Counted from the first letter of the stretch, positions 1,785 to 55,825 are shown. The stretch is 55,825 nt of DNA from Candidatus Yanofskybacteria bacterium (GCA_016185505.1 JACPNL010000010.1:1-55825); one strand, 5' to 3'. The notes: generated from the sequence alone by a model not told the origin. Numbers and translations: made by a program.

Positions 1785-3665
1785 TTATTCCACAGTTGCC
1801 CGAATTCGGCGGATTCCGGCGCTTACGGATTCTTCTTTGGTTATTTTGAACTTGCCTATCTCGGCAGTGTTTGAAACATGAGGTCCTCCGCACAATTCTT
1901 TAGAAAAGAATTGTCCTGAGCTGGTCGAATTAGAGAGTTCGCGGTTAAACGGCTCAACGGCTTTATCCGTTGAGCCGTTTATTGAATTATCGGTTGTTTT
2001 GGGACCGATCGTATAAACTGTTACGCGATCAGGATATTTTTCTTTGAAAAACGCTAAAGCGCCTGATTTTATCGCATCTTCATAAGACATTTCGGTTTTA
2101 GTAACCGGCAGTTCTTTTTTTACAGCATCGTTAACCATATCCTCTACTTGCTTGAGTTCCTCGAGTGTTAATTTACGCGGGAATGTGAAATCAAACCTCA
2201 ACCGTTCCGGGGTTATATCAGAGCCCTGCTGTTTCACCTCTTCTCCAAGAATTTTTCTCAATGCTGCGTGAAGCAAATGTGTAGCGGTATGAAGACGGGT
2301 TTTCTTTTTCATCTCTTCGGCATTGGCGGCGGTCAAATCCCCTTCCGTTATCATGCCATGTCCACCAAATTTTTTCTCCGCTCCGGCGCGGGATATTTCT
2401 TGATGTTTTCTAAATTCCTCATCGAAATTCTCACGAGAAAGCTCTGTTGTTTTTTCTTTTCCTAATTCTTTAATAACTTCAAAAGGTAGGCCGTAACTTT
2501 CGTATAGTTTAAAGGCGTTCTCGGCATTTACGGATGGCATCTTTCCAAGCTCCTTTAGCCCTTGAGATAATGTCTTTTCAAATTTTTCTTTTTCTCGGTC
2601 AAACTCATGAATTATTAAATCGGCATTCAGTTCGGGATAATATTGCCCATAGATCTCTAATATTTTCGCAAAAATATCATGCATTAAAGATAGGTCAGAC
2701 CTGTGGATAAACGACTTCGCAAGTCGTTTATCCACAGGTGGGGTGGATTGAGTGGCGGTATAAAAATAAGTTATCACTCTCCTCATTAGCCGGCGCAAAA
2801 CATAACCCTGCTCTTTGTTTGACGGCCTGACCCCGTCGGTGATAAGAAATGCGATGGCCCGTGAATGGTCGGCGATAATTCTTTTAGCTCTAATATCTAA
2901 CTCCGAGGGCGCGAGTTTGATTATCGGTTCCAAAAGATCCGTTTCAAAAATATTTTTAACTCCCTGTACAACCATAGCAAGACGCTCTAATCCCATACCG
3001 GTGTCTATGCCAGCTGGTTTTAAGTGTTTAAATTTTGAAGGGTCGGTTTCTTTGAGCATTTGCTCTCTATTCCCTTTATAATAAAATTCGTTGAAGACGA
3101 TATTCCAAATCTCAACTCCGTCCACATATATTTCTGTTGTCGGACCGCATGGACCCTCATTCCCGGTCGGGCCCCAGGTGTTATCCTCAATACCCATTTT
3201 CTTAACCTCAATTGCGACGTTGTTGTTTTTAGCTATTTCTTTCCATATCAATTCTGATTCTTCATCTGCGGGCATACCTTCCGAACCGCTGAAAACAGAA
3301 ACGTAGTCAACCTTGAGTCCCAGTTCTTTTGTAATAAATTCGTATGCCCAAGTGATGGATGCTTCTTTCCAATACCCACCAAAAGAAAAATTGCCAAGCA
3401 TTTCGAAAAAAGTGAGATGTGATTCGTCTCCAACTTCGTCTATGTCCGAAGTTCGCATTGATTTCTGAATTGAAACAGTATTCAAGGAACCGAAATCCTT
3501 CATCGCGTCGGCCTCGCCGGTATAGTAGGGCTTGAACTGTTGCATTCCGGCGGTTGTGAAAAGCACCGACGGATCAGTTGGCAAAAGAGAAGATGACTCC
3601 ACCCACTTATGGTTTCTCTTCTCAAAAAAATCTTTAAATTTTTTACGTATCTTTTGATGTGTCAT
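1785..3665 (-). CDS. alaS: alanine--tRNA ligase (short form, no C-Ala domain)
   Basis: LFTTAGMQQFK, HLTFFEMLGNFSFG, IDTGMGLER, editing motifs HTATHLL and ELCGGPH. Confidence 0.97.
   Translation of the reverse strand: MTHQKIRKKFKDFFEKRNHKWVESSSLLPTDPSVLFTTAGMQQFKPYYTGEADAMKDFGSLNTVSIQKSMRTSDIDEVGDESHLTFFEMLGNFSFGGYWKEASITWAYEFITKELGLKVDYVSVFSGSEGMPADEESELIWKEIAKNNNVAIEVKKMGIEDNTWGPTGNEGPCGPTTEIYVDGVEIWNIVFNEFYYKGNREQMLKETDPSKFKHLKPAGIDTGMGLERLAMVVQGVKNIFETDLLEPIIKLAPSELDIRAKRIIADHSRAIAFLITDGVRPSNKEQGYVLRRLMRRVITYFYTATQSTPPVDKRLAKSFIHRSDLSLMHDIFAKILEIYGQYYPELNADLIIHEFDREKEKFEKTLSQGLKELGKMPSVNAENAFKLYESYGLPFEVIKELGKEKTTELSRENFDEEFRKHQEISRAGAEKKFGGHGMITEGDLTAANAEEMKKKTRLHTATHLLHAALRKILGEEVKQQGSDITPERLRFDFTFPRKLTLEELKQVEDMVNDAVKKELPVTKTEMSYEDAIKSGALAFFKEKYPDRVTVYTIGPKTTDNSINGSTDKAVEPFNRELSNSTSSGQFFSKELCGGPHVSNTAEIGKFKITKEESVSAGIRRIRATVE
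2700..2738. repeat. 39-bp palindromic element, in frame in alaS
   Basis: cctgtggataaacgactt-cgc-aagtcgtttatccacagg encodes PVDKRLAKSFIHR. Also present twice in mnmA. Confidence 0.95.
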
Positions 3666-3804: not shown

Positions 3805-5181
3805 TTATGCTAACTTTTCCAGAGTCAACATCTGTGTAAGGGTTGATGGAACTTTGGCCTTTCGCAGGACGTCGCCGAAGTGCGAGGTCAGCCCCACGTT
3901 TCCGCAGACCCGGATGCCGAGGTTCTCCGCCTGCGCCCGCAAGGTCAGCTCCCGGAGCGCTTCCAGGCCGGCTTCGGTATGGAACGTCAGCCAGTCCTTG
4001 GGGATTCCGGGATAGATAATGTTGCCGGCTGTTGCCGTTCTGCCGCGGTGCAACTGGACAACCCAGGCAAGACGGCCGTCGTAGACCCATTCAAAACGGG
4101 CCGGGCCGAGCTTCTCCTGGATCCTCTCGTGTAGGAAGGTAACTTCCCCCTGCACTTGGCTTGGCAGAGCTTCCGGCGCCCTATCGCCAGTCATGAACTT
4201 GTCACCATAACCTCGGCATCCTTCCAGAACCAAATTGTCTGTACTGTCGGTGATGGCCGAGCCGGAGTAGTGCGCTTTCAGGCCGTGCTGGATGATGATT
4301 GCCGCGATCTTACTGTTGTCGGGGTCGTCTTCCTGCATGATGGCGAAGGGGTCTTTCCAGCCGCGGATGGTCTGGAACTTGCCCGGGGTCTGGATCTTGG
4401 GAACGGTCCTGACCCAGTCGGGTTCCTCGCTGTGGATCTTCTTGCCGAAGTTGAACAACGGGATCATCCGGCTGACAACGGTCGTGTACGGGACCGGCAA
4501 GCCGATGACGGCAGCCATGAGCAGGCCATAGGCCTTGTCGCCCATCGCAGAACTCATTCTGTTGGGCCATTCAATTTCGGGAGCAGGCGGCAGAAGCGCG
4601 GGGTCATAGTCCTCGGCCTGCCAGATGATTTGCTTTTCCTGGGCATAGCCGACACGATGCGGATGCACCGAGAACTCCACTCGGTGTGTGCTGGTGAACG
4701 GCATGTGGAACGGGAATCCGTAGACGGCCTTGATGAGGTCAAAGCCGATAGTCCTCGGTAATCTCATGCATCCGGCTTTTTCCACACACCTGGGTGTGTC
4801 GCCGGGCGCGCCTTCCATCAGGTTGCCGAAGAGAACTCCCGAGAAGCCGCCGTCATCAATGCGAACGTTCTCGTTCACGATAACGTAAAGGCCTTGACTA
4901 AGAAATCCTTCAATCATGCCTTTCGCCTCAAGAACGTCGTTGAGGTTCATTTTGAAAGGATTTCCGTCGGGCTTGTCGAGCAGGAACGTTCTGATGTTGA
5001 TCCTGCCGTTGCCGGACTTGGACATGAGGGTGTCCAGCGCCGTATTGACGTCGTTGAACACCTGGTCGGGACTGGTCCCGTTTATGCGCGAGAACCTCTG
5101 GCCTTCAGGGCCGAAGCTCACGAACTGGGCGACGTTGCCGCCTTCTTGGGCGAGTTTGTCGAGAACTTCATCTTTGAACAC
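3805..5181 (-). CDS. ATP-grasp / PPDK-N-like hypothetical protein, GC-rich
   Basis: 458 aa. Two lobes with VNE..GGFSGV / VEFSVH and IQHG..YSG / FEWVYDG..WVVQL signatures. Visibly higher GC than its flanks. Confidence 0.6.
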   Translation of the reverse strand: MFKDEVLDKLAQEGGNVAQFVSFGPEGQRFSRINGTSPDQVFNDVNTALDTLMSKSGNGRINIRTFLLDKPDGNPFKMNLNDVLEAKGMIEGFLSQGLYVIVNENVRIDDGGFSGVLFGNLMEGAPGDTPRCVEKAGCMRLPRTIGFDLIKAVYGFPFHMPFTSTHRVEFSVHPHRVGYAQEKQIIWQAEDYDPALLPPAPEIEWPNRMSSAMGDKAYGLLMAAVIGLPVPYTTVVSRMIPLFNFGKKIHSEEPDWVRTVPKIQTPGKFQTIRGWKDPFAIMQEDDPDNSKIAAIIIQHGLKAHYSGSAITDSTDNLVLEGCRGYGDKFMTGDRAPEALPSQVQGEVTFLHERIQEKLGPARFEWVYDGRLAWVVQLHRGRTATAGNIIYPGIPKDWLTFHTEAGLEALRELTLRAQAENLGIRVCGNVGLTSHFGDVLRKAKVPSTLTQMLTLEKLA

Positions 5182-5214
5182 AATATCCTCTGTTGTTAAA
5201 AATCGTTGGACAAA

Positions 5215-5242
5215 TTATACTAAAGAAGCGTTGACAGTCAAA
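5215..5242 (-). promoter_or_regulatory. sigma70-type promoter of the 3805-5181 gene
   Basis: TTGACT-16 nt-TATAAT on the minus strand. Confidence 0.65.
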
Positions 5243-5375
5243 TAAAAACGGCTAGTTAGCCGTGTTCTAATCACTGATTGCAGATTTCAGCGATCGCTGA
5301 AAAATGCAATTATATTTTTTTCAAACTTCGAATTCGTATAATTCAATTTCTCCATTTCTTAATTTCTAAATATCT

Positions 5376-5636
5376 CTATTTCTTTTCTACCGCCCACGTT
5401 TTTAATTCCTCGTAAGTCGCCTCGCCGCAGATGGTCTTTTGAGTGTCGGTGTTCACAAAAAATGGTACGCCCATACAAATACCTCGGGCTTCGTCGGCCC
5501 ATTTTTTCTCATTGCTCTCGTCGTGCCAGACCTCCATTCGCTGAACTTTAACCCCAAGCTCCTGTTCCAGCTTGTCTATAAGCGGCTCCATCTTTTGGCA
5601 ATGGCCGCATTCTTTACCGTAGAATTCCATTAACAT
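5376..5636 (-). CDS. thioredoxin/glutaredoxin-like protein
   Basis: EFYGKECGHC (CxxC) and cis-Pro GVP motif. Confidence 0.9.
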   Translation of the reverse strand: MLMEFYGKECGHCQKMEPLIDKLEQELGVKVQRMEVWHDESNEKKWADEARGICMGVPFFVNTDTQKTICGEATYEELKTWAVEKK

Positions 5637-5640
5637 GTTT

Positions 5641-5760
5641 CAAATTTAAAATTTAAAAATCAAAATTAAAAATGACAGTTTAAAATTCAAAATGATTTAG
5701 ATTTAAAATTTTAACATTTTTCATTGTCATTTTCCATTTTAATATTTGCATTTTACATTA
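5641..5760. repeat. low-complexity foldback repeat (about 7-nt period)
   Basis: A-rich arm (aaattta/aaatcaa, containing aaaatgaca) faces a T-rich arm (containing tgtcatttt). Confidence 0.7.
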
Positions 5761-50340: not shown

Positions 50341-51432
50341 ATGTCACGAGGCAAATGTATCTTGGTATTAATAATTGCCGTTGCTATCCTTACACGACTG
50401 TACGGCTTGGATTTTGAATTGCTTTCGCTTGAACAAAAAACGTCTGTTCTGCTTTCCGTTTCGGCGGGAGTGCTATCAGTTGTCGGACTCTATTTTTTAG
50501 TCAAAGAGTTATTTGATGAAAAATTAGCCGCAATATCTTCTTTTCTCCTTGCTGTATCTTTCTGGCACGTCCTCGTATCCAAACTTGGCGCTAAAGATAT
50601 CTTCACGTCTTTCGCTCTCATATTCGCATTTTATTTTATATGGCACGGATTGAAATATAATCGTATTTTTAACTTCTTTTTGGCGGGTTTATTTCTGGGA
50701 GCGGGATTTTATGCCGGCAAAGGATTCTTCTTGGCGCCGGTAGTTGTTTTACTGGTATTCTGGAACTACTGGGACTACATTAAGAAAGACTTCTCGCTCT
50801 CAAAATACGAGCAAACCAAAAGCGAAGTTCTCGCCGGTTTTTCGCTGTTAATGCTGACAACTCTAGCGGTTGCTCTGCCCGTTGGATTTTACTTATGGCA
50901 AAACCCGCCACTTTTGCTGTCCGCGGACAACTCCATATTCGCGAGGCCAAATCCTTTCACTCAAATACGCGACAATCTCGGATGGGTAGTCGACAAAATT
51001 CTGCTCATAGAATTCGGTTCGCCAACTAGCAGAGCAAATTTAATATCGTGGCCGTTGAGCATATTCTTCGCCATAGGATTTATCAAAGAACTCATCCACT
51101 GGCTGAAAAGAAAGCACGGCCACTTCTCGGTAGCTCATACTTTTATTTTCTCGTGGTTATTTGTAATGCTGATACCAACCCTATTATCTTCCAACCCGCT
51201 TGCGGTGAACGGAGTCGAACCGTCGGTTATTGGCTTGAGCATAATACTGCCACTCATAATGCTCTTGTCAGCAAAAGGTCTCTGGTGGGTTATAGAAAAA
51301 TTGAACAAGTGGGATAGGGCGCTTTATCCCCTCTATACGAAACACTGGGGCGGTCTTGATACCGGACCGTTCCTGGCAATGATTGCTTTGCTGTTATCGA
51401 TAGCGATATTGGAGATAGCTAAGCTAATATAG
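50341..51432 (+). CDS. GT-C (ArnT/PMT-like) membrane glycosyltransferase, short
   Basis: LYFLVKELF..AAISSFLLAVSFWHV..SK, many TMs. Confidence 0.75.
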   Translation: MSRGKCILVLIIAVAILTRLYGLDFELLSLEQKTSVLLSVSAGVLSVVGLYFLVKELFDEKLAAISSFLLAVSFWHVLVSKLGAKDIFTSFALIFAFYFIWHGLKYNRIFNFFLAGLFLGAGFYAGKGFFLAPVVVLLVFWNYWDYIKKDFSLSKYEQTKSEVLAGFSLLMLTTLAVALPVGFYLWQNPPLLLSADNSIFARPNPFTQIRDNLGWVVDKILLIEFGSPTSRANLISWPLSIFFAIGFIKELIHWLKRKHGHFSVAHTFIFSWLFVMLIPTLLSSNPLAVNGVEPSVIGLSIILPLIMLLSAKGLWWVIEKLNKWDRALYPLYTKHWGGLDTGPFLAMIALLLSIAILEIAKLI

Positions 51433-51435
51433 ACA

Positions 51436-51650
51436 GGAAAATAGTTAAGAGAGAATAGAAAATGGTATAGAAACATAGAAATAGGTTGTTGGAAATTGGA
51501 AAATGGTATAGAAAGTGGAAAATGGAAAAAGGGTTAAGAAAAAGGGAGGAAAGAAGATGAAAAAACGGTTAATTTCTATTTTCTTATTTACTAACCAATT
51601 TCTAATTTCTATCTTCCATACCAACTTCCATTTTCCATATCACCAATTTC
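51436..51650. repeat. empty foldback element (purine arm / pyrimidine arm, about 7-nt period)
   Basis: Arms resemble those flanking the four-helix-bundle gene (tagaaataggttgt, aaatggtatagaaa). Confidence 0.8.
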
Positions 51651-51676
51651 TGGATTGCGCGTGGCGCCAACGAATA

Positions 51677-53560
51677 ATGTCATATAAAAAACTCTCCATA
51701 TTAGTAATATTAGTTGCGCTGGTTTTGTCCATAACAAGCTTGTGGGACGACTCTTTCATCGTTGATGAGGTACCTCATGTCGGAGCCGGATATTCATATA
51801 TTACAAAAGGCGATATGCGGTTAAATCCCGAACACCCACCTCTGGCAAAAGATATAGCCGGAGCAGCTTTATCTTTTCTGGCTATAGATCAAACGGTATT
51901 TTCAACACAATATTGGGTTACTGATATAAATGGACAATGGAATTTCGGAAGAATTTTGATATATAACTCATCAAATGACGTTAATGCTATCACGAGAACC
52001 GCTAAAACGACGATGCTCATATTTTTCGTATTATCGGCTATCCTGATATACCGGTGGACGCGAGAACGATATGGAGATAGGGCGGCCTTCATCGCAACTT
52101 TGTTGTTTTCTTTCTCGCCCACGGTTCTGGCCCACTCGCGTTTTGTCACCACCGATATGCCGGCGCTGTTCGGAGTGCTTCTCGGTACTTACTTTTTTAT
52201 CAAATATTTACAGAAGCCGTCTCGAAGAACATTCTGGCTCGCGGTTCTGGCATTCGGCGTTGCCCAACTAACCAAATTTTCCGTTGTGCTTCTCGCGCCT
52301 CTATTCATATTGATGGTAATCGCGTGGTGCATAGCAAATTCATTATCTTTCAGAAAGTCGGCTGTTTTAGCCACTCGCTCACTGGTGTTGATGACGACGG
52401 GAATCATTCTTGTTGTCTGGCCGGTTTACGCTCTCCATACGATGAATTATCCGCCGGAGAAACAAAGCGCCGACACGGAATTTCATCTTGGTTCTTACGG
52501 CAACCGTTTATTTGCTGATCCCGTTGTATGGGCGTCAGACAAACCAGTCATAAGACCACTCGCCTATTATGCCACCGGAATTCTTATGGTTAATCAGAGA
52601 GCCATAGGCGGCAATAACACATTCTTTCTCGGCGAAGTAAGAAACTATGCCTGGAAACATTATTTTCCCGTCGTGTATGGGATAAAGGAACCAATTGCGT
52701 TTTGGGGATTGGTGGTAATCGTACTTTTGGCTTTGAGCCTGAAGGTTAAAAATTGCCCCGCACCAAACTTTTCCGCTGACCCCGCAGGAAGTTTTCCCGC
52801 TGACCGCCAATCAGATAGAGGGCGGACTTCCAGCGGGGCAGGCCGCCATTCAGAAAAGAGGCGGGTTTGGTACGGGGTTAGTTTTTGTTTCCAATCGCTT
52901 CGCTCTTGGACAAAAACTAACTTCGTTGAGTTCTCAATGCTGTTGTGGCTCGCGATATATTGGTATTTAAGTATTCGTGCCAATTTGAACATCGGGGTTA
53001 GGCACCTACTGCCCACTTACGGGTTTGTATTTATATTACTGGCTGGCCAGCTAGAGCGTATTACGTATTACGTATTACGTATTAAGAGGAAAATAGTCCT
53101 TACTACTTACTGCTTACTACTTACTGCTTTGCTTGGTTGGTATATCGTAGATGTCGTCCGAGTACACCCCTACTATTTAACTTATTTCAATCAACTGGCG
53201 GGCGGACCGGCGGGTGGCCACCGATACGCCGTTGATTCTAACTTGGACTGGGGACAGGACTTAAAGCGGTTAGCAGACTGGGTTGAAAAACGAGGGATAA
53301 ATAAAATTCACTTGGATTATTTTGGTTGGGCTGACCAAGGTTATTATTTAAAAGACAAACTTGTATGGATAAACGCAGGAACATATAAAGACGCTCGTGA
53401 CTTTCTCGCTCAAAATCCTAATGGTGGGCATATCGCCGTATCGGCTTCATTCTACACGGGTTCACGAGGCGACCCGGTCAACAACTACATCTGGCTGGAC
53501 GCGTATCGTCCAATAGCAACTATCGGGAACTCTATATTTGTGTGGAAAATTAGACCTTGA
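51677..53560 (+). CDS. GT39/ArnT-like membrane glycosyltransferase
   Basis: DEVPH, NPEHPPL, AHSRFVTTD, DSNLDWGQDL. The upstream ORF extension is repeat DNA. Confidence 0.9.
   Translation: MSYKKLSILVILVALVLSITSLWDDSFIVDEVPHVGAGYSYITKGDMRLNPEHPPLAKDIAGAALSFLAIDQTVFSTQYWVTDINGQWNFGRILIYNSSNDVNAITRTAKTTMLIFFVLSAILIYRWTRERYGDRAAFIATLLFSFSPTVLAHSRFVTTDMPALFGVLLGTYFFIKYLQKPSRRTFWLAVLAFGVAQLTKFSVVLLAPLFILMVIAWCIANSLSFRKSAVLATRSLVLMTTGIILVVWPVYALHTMNYPPEKQSADTEFHLGSYGNRLFADPVVWASDKPVIRPLAYYATGILMVNQRAIGGNNTFFLGEVRNYAWKHYFPVVYGIKEPIAFWGLVVIVLLALSLKVKNCPAPNFSADPAGSFPADRQSDRGRTSSGAGRHSEKRRVWYGVSFCFQSLRSWTKTNFVEFSMLLWLAIYWYLSIRANLNIGVRHLLPTYGFVFILLAGQLERITYYVLRIKRKIVLTTYCLLLTALLGWYIVDVVRVHPYYLTYFNQLAGGPAGGHRYAVDSNLDWGQDLKRLADWVEKRGINKIHLDYFGWADQGYYLKDKLVWINAGTYKDARDFLAQNPNGGHIAVSASFYTGSRGDPVNNYIWLDAYRPIATIGNSIFVWKIRP
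52756..52877. repeat. nested palindromic elements in frame in the glycosyltransferase
   Basis: The outer ccccgcacc...ggtacgggg element contains a 63-bp sister element (52780-52842). The outer element matches 9822-9884 (reverse strand). Confidence 0.85.
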
Positions 53561-53564
53561 TTTA

Positions 53565-54083
53565 TAGAAATAGGTTGTCAGAAATTAGAAAGTGGTATGG
53601 AGAATGGAGGATAGAAACTGGTATTCGTATACAAGTTAGTCATTCTCATGAAAATTTTTCCATACTTCACGAAGACGAAATAGCTGACGCGAAGAACTAT
53701 CATAAGAATCTATAAGTTCACTGCAAAGTTTAATATCAATATTGTTAAAATAAACATCACGACACACAGACAGGTGGTTAATCATTTCATTACACTCACC
53801 GATTGCGTCATCAAGATATTTTTGCCAATTTTTTCTTTGGTAGCGTTTAGCGAATCCTTCCGCTAAAAGAGCGCATGGCGCTTTACAAGATCTTCTCATT
53901 TGAGATGCTAGATCATATTTTTCCTCTTTTGGCAGACGGGGAACAACCTGTGTCAAAATAATAATCTGATTTTTATAAAGTTGCTGATATACCCGCAAAT
54001 CTTGAAAACTCTTAATGGTTTTATTACCGTTATCCATTTTCTAATTTCTATACCATTTTCTATTTTCTAGCAACTACTTTCTA
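53565..54083. mobile_element. putative foldback element carrying a four-helix-bundle gene
   Basis: Imperfect inverted arms 53565-53620 and 54032-54083 enclose the ORF. Confidence 0.5.
53636..54037 (-). CDS. four helix bundle protein (23S rRNA IVS protein/bAvd-like family)
   Basis: IKSFQDLRVYQ, LPKEEKYDLASQMRRS, LAEG. Confidence 0.93.
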   Translation of the reverse strand: MDNGNKTIKSFQDLRVYQQLYKNQIIILTQVVPRLPKEEKYDLASQMRRSCKAPCALLAEGFAKRYQRKNWQKYLDDAIGECNEMINHLSVCRDVYFNNIDIKLCSELIDSYDSSSRQLFRLREVWKNFHEND

Positions 54084-54087
54084 AAAC

Positions 54088-55025
54088 AAAAGGTCCTCCA
54101 GCTCCGACTATAGCCGGAACGAGGACCGTGGGTGTTTGTACCCCTTGATTCCACCATTTCCAAGGGGCTCACTTCGCCTAGGGGCGAGAGTGAGAGCGCC
54201 GAAACCGCCAGGCGATCTGGGATTTTTAGGCCCCAGGAATTTTCAATTCGCCTCGCCTCGCGCGGTTTCGGCAATTTGGGGGGGTCACGCCATTCGGTCT
54301 CCAGTTTTTAGTGGGTCGCCCCGACACGCACCTCGCGCGCCGGACCCCGGACCTATTGACCACCGTTTTTATCGGTGGCTGGCGTGACCTTCTCGGTGGC
54401 TGAGGGACAGTGCGATTACTGGCCGGGAACTCATCATCGCCGGTGCTTCATCGTTGCACCGCCTTCAGCCATCTTTTTGGGCCCTACAATTATTTTTTAG
54501 AAATCCTCCCCGAAGAGAGTTGTATTTGAATGGGCCCGAGAGAAACCAATAAAACTTTAAGGCGATATCGTCCTTCGATCCTGTCAGACCATTAGTATCT
54601 TACTTGAATGTCTGGATTACAATGCTTTATTGGCTTGTCTCGAGCCCGTTGCCGAGCCCAAGTCTTATATAAGGTACTTGAGATATATGTTATCACATCT
54701 ATCCCTTTCTGTAAACCCTTATTCAAGGATTCACGGAAAGAGATGCTGGTTTTTTGCCGGACCAGCAAACCGTGGGAATTTGTGCTCGCGGGGGTCCCCC
54801 GCCAGTTTTATCGTTTCAAGCCCTTTTCACCTATTCCTTTCTGCCGGCTAACATATGGGAGCGCGGGCAGTACACGAACCCCGCTCCGGGTGAAAACGAG
54901 CCGCAGAACTTTTTTTACTAGCGCTTTACGATGCGCCAGCGTCCGCGGCGGTGGCATCAGTAAACCCTACGCTTAACAATGATGCGGAGGGCCTCTGGAG
55001 GGTACAGTCCTGTACCCTCCTCTGA
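54088..55025 (+). ncRNA. candidate large structured RNA (about 940 nt)
   Basis: Tightly packed long helices with G-U pairs mostly favouring the + strand. No credible ORF. Confidence 0.45.
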
Positions 55026-55045
55026 CGAAAGGAGTCGAGGTTGGC

Positions 55046-55288
55046 CTAGAGCCGAGCATTCCGTGCGTGGTTTGCCCAGCGCCGCCCGGCTAGCCGGCCG
55101 ATGGCGGGTACGTCCTCGATGGGAACGAATCGCCGAAGCGGGTCGCGTCCGAAGACGCGCTCGTCTTCCTCACGCGCCTCCTCGCATCCGAAATAGGACG
55201 CAAGGACCGCGCCGTCGTTTCGACTGTTGTCGAGGACGAACGTGCCGCCGAATTGAGCGAAATTCTGCTCCGAACCTACTCTTGCCAT
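55046..55288 (-). CDS. small GC-rich hypothetical protein
   Basis: GGAGG RBS before ATG, promoter-like TTGCAA..TGTTATAA upstream. Confidence 0.55.
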   Translation of the reverse strand: MARVGSEQNFAQFGGTFVLDNSRNDGAVLASYFGCEEAREEDERVFGRDPLRRFVPIEDVPAIGRLAGRRWANHARNARL

Positions 55289-55384
55289 TTTTGCCTCCGC
55301 GAAAAGGGTGTTAATAAGAACAAACTCGTACCCTATCTTATAACATACCCCAAAAATTTTTGCAATAGGTCAAAAATCGGCCTT

Positions 55385-55762
55385 TTAAGCCGATTTTGGG
55401 TGTTGTTCTGTCTTTTCCTCGCAATCTTTACATCGAACCGCAAAAGGCATGGCTATCAAACGCTTCTGGGATATATCCTCTCCGCAATCAACACAAAGGC
55501 CATATTCGTCTTGTTCAAGACGTTCTAGCGCCATCTCGACTTGCCTTAACTCCGTATTTCTTATTTCAATTAAACGAGCGGTAAGCTCTGGATCAAAGTT
55601 TTCTACATCGTCACTTTCTCCATTACAACTACAACTCATCCGCGCTATTCTTGACAAACCTTGGCCTTCTTCTCTAAGCTCTTGGAGCTTGCTTTGAATT
55701 TCGGTGACAATTTGTCTTTTTTGTTCTAGGAGTTTTTCTTTGATTCCATTTTTTGATTCCAC
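55385..55762 (-). CDS. TraR/DksA C4 zinc-finger protein
   Basis: ALERL..YGLCVDCGEDI..RL..MPFAVRCKDC. Confidence 0.92.
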   Translation of the reverse strand: MESKNGIKEKLLEQKRQIVTEIQSKLQELREEGQGLSRIARMSCSCNGESDDVENFDPELTARLIEIRNTELRQVEMALERLEQDEYGLCVDCGEDISQKRLIAMPFAVRCKDCEEKTEQHPKSA

Positions 55763-55825
55763 TTATTTTCCCCTCTTGTTAAAGGCCATTCTAAATCTAG
55801 GCACAGAATACATGATAACTCTTAA

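Follow-up and report, generated by a model that had tools for sequence, protein, structure and literature searches.

The window analyzed here is a stretch of 55,825 nucleotides from Candidatus Yanofskybacteria bacterium (GCA_016185505.1, JACPNL010000010.1:1-55825) that has a G+C content of 43% and resembles a chromosome of Patescibacteria type. A gene on the minus strand at 53636..54037 encodes a protein of 133 aa that was assigned by profile matches to the four-helix-bundle family (PF05635/TIGR02436), which is also designated S23p or '23S rRNA IVS protein'. The ORF matched PF05635 (23S_rRNA_IVP) with an E-value of 6.7e-15 and a score of 55.7 bits compared to a cut-off of 33.8, and matched TIGR02436 ('four helix bundle protein') with 53.3 bits compared to a cut-off of 24. 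A protein search recovered 382 homologs at E ≤ 0.001, the best of which was 97% identical and many of which were 60–77% identical. As noted in the initial annotation, the gene is antisense to the upstream operon, in which two plus-strand genes for PMT_2 glycosyltransferases were identified by ORF calling and Pfam matching. The first gene extends from 50341 to 51432. The second ends at 53560 and may be read from 51515 or 51677, of which the ATG at 51677 is the likely start; the GTG at 51515 is located within a hairpin that is described below and opens a spurious N-terminal extension of the glycosyltransferase.

The 133-aa protein was modeled with AlphaFold2 from an input of 35 sequences, which yielded four helices with a mean pLDDT of 90.4. 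The top Foldseek match of the model was Xcc0516 (2gsc_B) with TM-scores of 0.79/0.89, and 2gsc also was matched by the sequence profile at E 1.3e-5. The comparison with BT_0352 (2rld_B) gave TM-scores of 0.69/0.81. Avd chains of DGRs fitted the model more weakly with TM-scores of 0.56–0.70, including 0.56/0.66 for 8ube_D. The family membership and the relation to Avd that had been recognized previously thus were both recovered, the latter as the more distant of the two. PF05635 and TIGR02436 were the sole matches of the protein among Pfam and TIGR profiles, and no transposase, nuclease or other recombinase domain was found with these collections. The phage collection contained no protein match to the four-helix-bundle protein. 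No rRNA match was detected in the window, nor at 51300-55825 with E ≤ 1, and no Rfam family matched the arms that flank the gene, the ORF-less hairpin or the adjoining GC-rich region.

The fold shared with the DGR accessory protein Avd raises the prospect that the locus is a remnant or accessory of a DGR, in which case the gene would be an Avd gene and the repeats that flank it would derive from template and variable repeats. The protein does match the Avd model NF033474, but weakly, with 17 bits compared to a cut-off of 80. Moreover, no reverse-transcriptase domain was present among the 46 window ORFs that were scanned, and the flanking arms are short-period arrays instead of a template/variable repeat pair. 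A DGR origin is highly improbable and was rejected on the absence of a reverse transcriptase from these 46 ORFs and on the score of the Avd model.

Both sides of the gene are occupied by arms that are composed of ~7-nt units. The purine-rich arm on the plus strand (53565..53622), which is the 3′ arm in the sense of the gene, starts 5 nt past the stop codon of the upstream glycosyltransferase gene, and its inner end is ~13 nt from the stop codon of the four-helix-bundle gene. The pyrimidine-rich arm on the plus strand (54027..54083) is the purine-rich 5′ arm in the gene sense, and the start codon of the four-helix-bundle gene (54035-54037) falls inside its inner end. When the region 53555-54095 was folded as RNA, the segment 53565-53622 was paired with 54027-54083. 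The plus-strand fold had an energy of −142.5 kcal/mol with a z-score of −6.45 that was equaled by 0 of 100 shuffles, and the minus-strand fold had an energy of −129.4 kcal/mol with a z-score of −3.95. The arm duplex alone comprised 52 pairs including 8 G-U pairs on the plus strand (−55.8 kcal/mol) and 44 pairs including 2 G-U pairs on the minus strand (−37.9 kcal/mol). Whichever strand is transcribed, the RNA is predicted to form a ~50-bp stem that encloses the ORF. Flank complementarity placed the 53636..54037 ORF first among 168 window ORFs. The folds and this ranking support the initial description of a gene that is set between complementary periodic arms.

A gene-less copy of the arms 2 kb away also had been proposed, and was located as a hairpin at 51476-51650 between the two glycosyltransferase genes on the basis of its fold and repeats. 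The left, purine-rich arm (51476..51532, plus strand) has a period of 7 with the unit TGGAAAA, the loop (51533..51571) is about 39 nt and gene-free, and the right, pyrimidine-rich arm (51572..51650, plus strand) again was delimited by fold and repeats. The hairpin folded with −57.7 kcal/mol (z −4.1) on the plus strand and −46.9 kcal/mol (z −4.0) on the minus strand. An additional purine-rich repeat block is situated to the left of the hairpin on the plus strand (51437..51473); this block is locally unpaired and is 86% complementary to 54045-54081. The left arm of the ORF-less hairpin (51475-51528) is 81% identical to 53564-53617 in the gene-bearing cassette and 81% complementary to 54027-54083. 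A search for an ORF remnant in the loop disclosed just one alignment, which reached into the first codons and was weak and of low complexity. Within the window, a 16-mer core was found without mismatch at the cassette and ORF-less hairpin sites only. Tandem Repeats Finder reported a period of 7 in three of the four arms, at 54036-54069 (consensus ATTTTCT), 51490-51529 and 51570-51611, and returned no row with a score of ≥30 for the 53565-53620 arm.

Several other features were observed in the window. A region of ~1 kb without a convincing ORF adjoins the cassette at 54085-55045, within a GC-rich stretch that continues to about 55300; strong secondary structure is predicted for each strand of this region (z −7.3 and −8.5). 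For the interval 54085-55330, no Rfam match was obtained at E ≤ 1, the ORFs had no Pfam match, and no similarity was seen elsewhere in the window or in the examined loci; the GC-rich segment could be a large unclassified RNA or decayed foreign DNA. The second PMT_2 ORF includes a G+C-rich inverted repeat in frame at 52748-52926 (−78.9 kcal/mol, z −4.7) which looks like a palindromic insertion that is tolerated in coding sequence. The same ORF contains perfect or near-perfect heptad arrays, (CGTATTA)x4 and (CTTACTA)x4.4, at 53057-53129, which formed no significant hairpin on folding. Distant from the cassette, an isolated TTTCT-type pyrimidine array without a visible partner (5340-5390) and a separate A-rich periodic hairpin (5640-5760) flank an 86-aa ORF on the minus strand (5376-5636).

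Homologous loci were collected in a scan of one genome per species that produced 40 loci. Most of the titles denote Patescibacteria-group lineages, 11 denote uncultured Gammaproteobacteria, and Bacteroidota and Tritonobacter are represented by one row each. The titles of the loci ascribed to uncultured Gammaproteobacteria (L005, L007, L010, L012, L014, L023, L028, and others) may be unreliable; L010, for example, is syntenic with L030 and L029, which are titled Patescibacteria or Woesebacteria. Counts are given for 39 loci, comprising the window and 38 others; L029 was excluded because its contig breaks off within the gene, and L040 because the match, from an archaeal MAG, spans 24 aa. Flank complementarity reached z ≥ 5 compared to shuffles in 27 of the 39 loci, and was weaker (z < 5) in 12, among them L013, L015, L017, L019, and L022. 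Measured against 126 control ORFs from the same loci, complementarity was above the 95th percentile in 30/39 cases and above the 99th percentile in 8/39. The arms abut the ORF at the homologous loci, and the 5′ arm is purine-rich in the gene sense in 36/39. The rRNA context was absent at all 40 loci. The gene is co-directional with both neighbors in 20/39 loci and antisense to both in 6/39, including the window. The scan matches each derive from a different MAG, and second copies are present in L022 and L038 only, at a spacing of about 1–1.5 kb. The two copies in L022 are located at 1858-2262 and 3001-3390; those in L038 are at 2909-3444 and 4291-4813, the second of which is reversed and looks broken. 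The genes in L030, L031, L039, and possibly L008, L023, and L038 have a frameshifted or truncated appearance, which assembly error may explain.

A translated plasmid search recovered 24 cyanobacterial records, from which 16 loci were examined. Purine-rich arrays of 7–9-nt units were present just 5′ of the ATG in 15 of the 16 loci, and a pyrimidine-rich complement just 3′ of the stop codon in 13, although these counts are non-independent as several Nostocales plasmid loci are orthologous. The arrays were absent at one locus and were direct, not inverted, at two, e.g., in Pseudanabaena with (AAAAGCT)14 upstream and (CCAAAAG)n downstream. Thus, the stem is not universal. On two whole plasmids, the four-helix-bundle gene ranked first in flank complementarity among 38 and 31 annotated CDS, respectively. 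The architecture therefore recurs around homologs in Patescibacteria and Cyanobacteria, and homologs generally are flanked by such arms (27/39 and 15/16 loci, respectively), as the proposal in the initial annotation entailed. A tyrosine recombinase/integrase gene adjoins the four-helix-bundle gene in 7/16 plasmid loci (L041, L043, L049, L050, L052, L053, and L055), many of which probably are orthologous. In L044 the gene is positioned between cas6 and cas4, and in L045 between cas10/cmr2 and cmr3.

The relationship between the arms and the proteins was assessed across the loci. Close relatives of the 133-aa protein (clade A) possess TAGAAAT-type units, and autocorrelation in this clade (n = 29) was 0.45, 0.40, and 0.39 at lags 7, 14, and 21, respectively, compared to 0.26–0.29 in controls. 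The distant clade B (8 rows, 100% support) is characterized by TTGAAGT/CTTGAA units with a period of ~7.5–8 nt, and a third, G-rich type of arm occurs in L022 and L031. Both main clades were found in Levybacteria, and the difference in repeat type therefore cannot be attributed to host taxon. Furthermore, the two L022 paralogs, which are 1 kb apart, each have a different arm type. Judged from the sequences, repeat type tracks protein clade at a coarse level. The proposed covariation of arm unit with protein phylogeny therefore stands for the clades and the L022 paralogs, but not at a fine scale: within the close clade, arm variants were distributed over the protein tree without clustering (10 changes versus 9 in shuffles), although the resolution of this tree is low, as 20 of its 36 inner branches are open.

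The initial annotation also had remarked that mismatches between the arms are mostly G-U compatible on the plus strand, and had suggested that an operon read-through transcript could loop the gene out. The G-U excess on the plus strand is evident at this locus, as described above, but did not extend to the family: across the 39 loci, wobble-compatible mismatches numbered 76 in the sense and 71 in the antisense direction alongside 178 transversions, and the duplex energy favored sense in 24 loci and antisense in 15. Selection for RNA pairing on one strand therefore is unsupported, and a loop-out by read-through transcription is not a feature of the family. In addition, the 3′ arm of the same locus was the best partner of the 5′ arm in just 4/39 loci, and was among the top three in 10/39. 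Arm complementarity thus largely reflects a shared motif. Taken together, the own-arm pairing and the mismatch data imply that the conserved feature is mainly a motif array in mirror orientation, an outcome that recognition by a factor explains no less well than structure alone does.

Comparison of related loci revealed how the gene-bearing and gene-less forms differ in stability. ORF-less hairpins composed of the same repeats were found a few kb from the gene in 4/28 other clade-A loci (L009, L013, L018, and L020). Among these, L018 and L020 are syntenic and 87–91% identical. At the site that follows a permease gene, L018 possesses an ORF-less hairpin of the four-helix-bundle type (4710-4870), and L020 possesses a cassette (4719-5222) with a GxxExxY/PDDEXK_3 gene (140 aa; TIGR04256, E 1.6e-20) that is flanked by its own periodic inverted arms with a unit of about ACTCGAAT. 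At a second site, an unrelated palindrome in L018 corresponds to an ORF-less hairpin of the four-helix-bundle type in L020. The cassette architecture thus is also used by a second, unrelated small-gene family, the L020 gene being the only GxxExxY gene in the DNA examined. Gene-bearing cassettes, in contrast, did not differ in site within any of the four syntenic pairs (L018/L020, L010/L030, L034/L038, and L032/L039). In the last of these pairs, the ORF has opposite orientations with respect to a shared flanking gene in L032 (about 2840-3620) and L039 (about 2780-3530); either the ORF was inverted between its arms, or two insertions occurred in opposite orientations. Overall, position is conserved for the gene-bearing copy, whereas the gene-less hairpins are subject to turnover, so that the latter and the former differ in that the anticipated variation among relatives was observed for the hairpins but not for the gene-bearing copy.

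The initial annotation had interpreted the gene-bearing and gene-less copies as an autonomous/non-autonomous pair. In this explanation the cassette is a foldback element at the DNA level whose arms are terminal inverted repeats, the ORF-less hairpin is a non-autonomous derivative of the autonomous gene copy, and the four-helix-bundle protein recognizes the ends, with host enzymes performing cutting and joining. The inverted arms and the ORF-less copy that is 81% alike are in keeping with such an element, as are the different elements at the orthologous L018/L020 sites, one of which is a GxxExxY/PDDEXK_3 cassette, and the flipped ORF at the L032/L039 site. The lack of an RNA strand bias also fits a constraint at the DNA level. 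Family members are scattered further: 23S_rRNA_IVP genes are reported inside cas loci (PMC3936711), a placement that was also observed here on two plasmids, and the PF05635 family also occurs in CPR rRNA insertions (PMC11270868). IS/MITE pairs and foldback transposons likewise have inverted ends made of sub-repeats and exist in gene-bearing and gene-less versions, but the cassette differs from these in that no transposase or nuclease domain was found in the protein, and the gene-bearing copy is low in number, with one MAG per scan match and few second copies, and stable in position, with the same site filled in 4/4 syntenic pairs. No target-site duplication was seen at the boundaries of the window cassette or at those of L018/L020, although degenerate arm ends blur the boundaries in both instances. 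Positional stability similarly is a property of the heptamer arrays of Xanthomonas, 83% of which are conserved in position between two species (PMC4692102). A transposon-like pair thus was not sustained, and a foldback element is an unlikely explanation of the locus.

The positional stability of the sites instead could reflect a host gene that is stably inherited and for which the arms serve as ordinary expression signals. The 5′ purine array would be a Shine–Dalgarno-like leader or operator, the 3′ complement would be a stabilizer or terminator, and the ORF-less hairpins would have no relation to the cassette, being intergenic terminators or insulators that arose from the same slippage-prone motif. 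The arms indeed abut the start and stop codons, GGA/GAGG-like motifs are present within the units, and solo hairpins directly follow stop codons inside operons. Nevertheless, neighboring genes at the same loci and plasmids are without such flanks, the two paralogs in the L022 genome have different arms, and the same architecture is maintained across phyla despite different repeat units. Additionally, the occurrence of the family in rRNA insertions and cas operons in the two sources just mentioned has no obvious connection with a host role. That the arms are no more than expression signals is a rather improbable proposition.

The arrangement of the cassette corresponds most closely to that of intervening sequences (IVSs) in 23S rRNA. 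ORF-bearing IVSs, such as those of Coxiella and Leptospira with an S23p ORF, share the protein family with the window cassette and enclose the ORF in a stem of inverted repeats as in the folds obtained here. In the Coxiella 23S IVS, a tandem array of GACAGAT heptamers immediately precedes the S23p start (PMC4990558), at the same position as the 5′ arm in the window. The same article describes experimental demonstration that RNase III excises this IVS, and indicates that the Coxiella S23p protein seemingly is not made in vivo. Inverted ~7-nt arrays that bracket an ORF are the architecture of ORF-bearing 23S rRNA intervening sequences. The window cassette and all 40 related loci differ in being outside rRNA, the cassette arms are longer with arrays of 7–8 units, and excision by RNase III is putative here. 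The interpretation that we prefer, to which we assign about an even chance, is that the cassette is a free-standing element of IVS type in an intergenic spacer and that the protein most likely binds its own repeat arrays.

In this IVS-type interpretation, the stem would be a substrate of RNase III as in rRNA IVSs, and cleavage would insulate the cassette or excise it from surrounding transcripts. A cut on the plus strand would detach the cassette from RNA that reads through from the glycosyltransferase operon, and a cut on the minus strand would trim the leader of the four-helix-bundle gene. The protein, which probably is a pentamer, may recognize in cis the heptad arrays that are cognate to it, with a role in autoregulation or protection, and may bind ORF-less hairpins such as 51476-51650 in trans. 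Xcc0516 is a homopentameric toroid as cited in PMC4990558, and Avd, which likewise is pentameric, binds a stem-loop of RNA (bioRxiv 10.1101/2023.10.23.563531). Binding of the protein to the arrays is inferred from this RNA binding by Avd together with the clade specificity of the repeats. The whole might operate as a pair of cis-element and trans-factor that would be comparable to the REPIN-RAYT system.

RAYT is a Y1 transposase whose gene usually is single-copy, positionally stable, and flanked by inverted copies of a short element, and this element also is dispersed as gene-less hairpin doublets. The four-helix-bundle protein differs from RAYT in the lack of a recognized catalytic domain, and the arms of the cassette are periodic arrays instead of a single palindrome. 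With its stable gene copy and changeable gene-less hairpins, the system nonetheless resembles REPIN-RAYT more than it does an active transposon.

Heptameric arrays also have been described in other bacteria. In X. campestris, 186 GGGAATC arrays were enumerated with 70 cases of convergent intergenic pairs (Rehm et al., 2015; PMC4692102). The Nostoc heptameric repeat is GGGGA(C/T)T, and cyanobacterial STRR heptanucleotides are mentioned in the same article, in which heptameric repeats are treated as G-quadruplex-forming simple repeats of a function unknown to the authors. Like those of the cassette, the arrays in Xanthomonas and Nostoc have 7-nt units in short intergenic spacers and often form convergent pairs with the purine-rich member first as in the ORF-less hairpin here, but they are G-rich whereas the units here are A-rich. 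The four-unit GGGAATC array in row 15 of S2 Table A (PMC4692102), located 6 nt after bccP, overlaps the start codon of XCC0516, which is the gene of the crystallized protein 2gsc; the article provides no comment from the authors on this array and contains zero occurrences of the S23 or four-helix-bundle family. A search of openly available full-text literature found no link between free-standing four-helix-bundle genes and flanking periodic arms. The cross-phylum link between the four-helix-bundle family and heptamer arrays thus appears to be undescribed.

Tentatively, and with somewhat less assurance than attaches to the IVS-type interpretation of the locus itself, these parallels raise the possibility that S23p/Avd-like four-helix-bundle proteins are the trans-acting partners of over-represented bacterial heptameric arrays, with one or a few gene-bearing 'master' cassettes and many gene-less hairpins per genome. 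Such a relationship would cover the GGGAATC pairs of Xanthomonas, the STRR-type repeats of Cyanobacteria, and the TAGAAAT hairpins of Patescibacteria, and the GxxExxY genes, which encode a nuclease fold and are unrelated, may be a parallel system of their own. There are practical implications for annotation, as heptad arrays can extend ORF calls, which is exemplified by the GTG at 51515. More speculatively, the arrays might be misread as CRISPR-like repeats, 23S_rRNA_IVP genes having been reported with cas loci. The S23p/four-helix-bundle family is very large. If the proposed partnership is correct, the family would be part of a new cis-element/trans-factor, or selfish, system that includes the ORF-bearing intervening sequences of rRNA as one particular case, and one explanation would account for three puzzles, namely, the conserved ORF of intervening sequences, the role of S23p outside DGRs, and the excess of intergenic heptamers in bacterial genomes.
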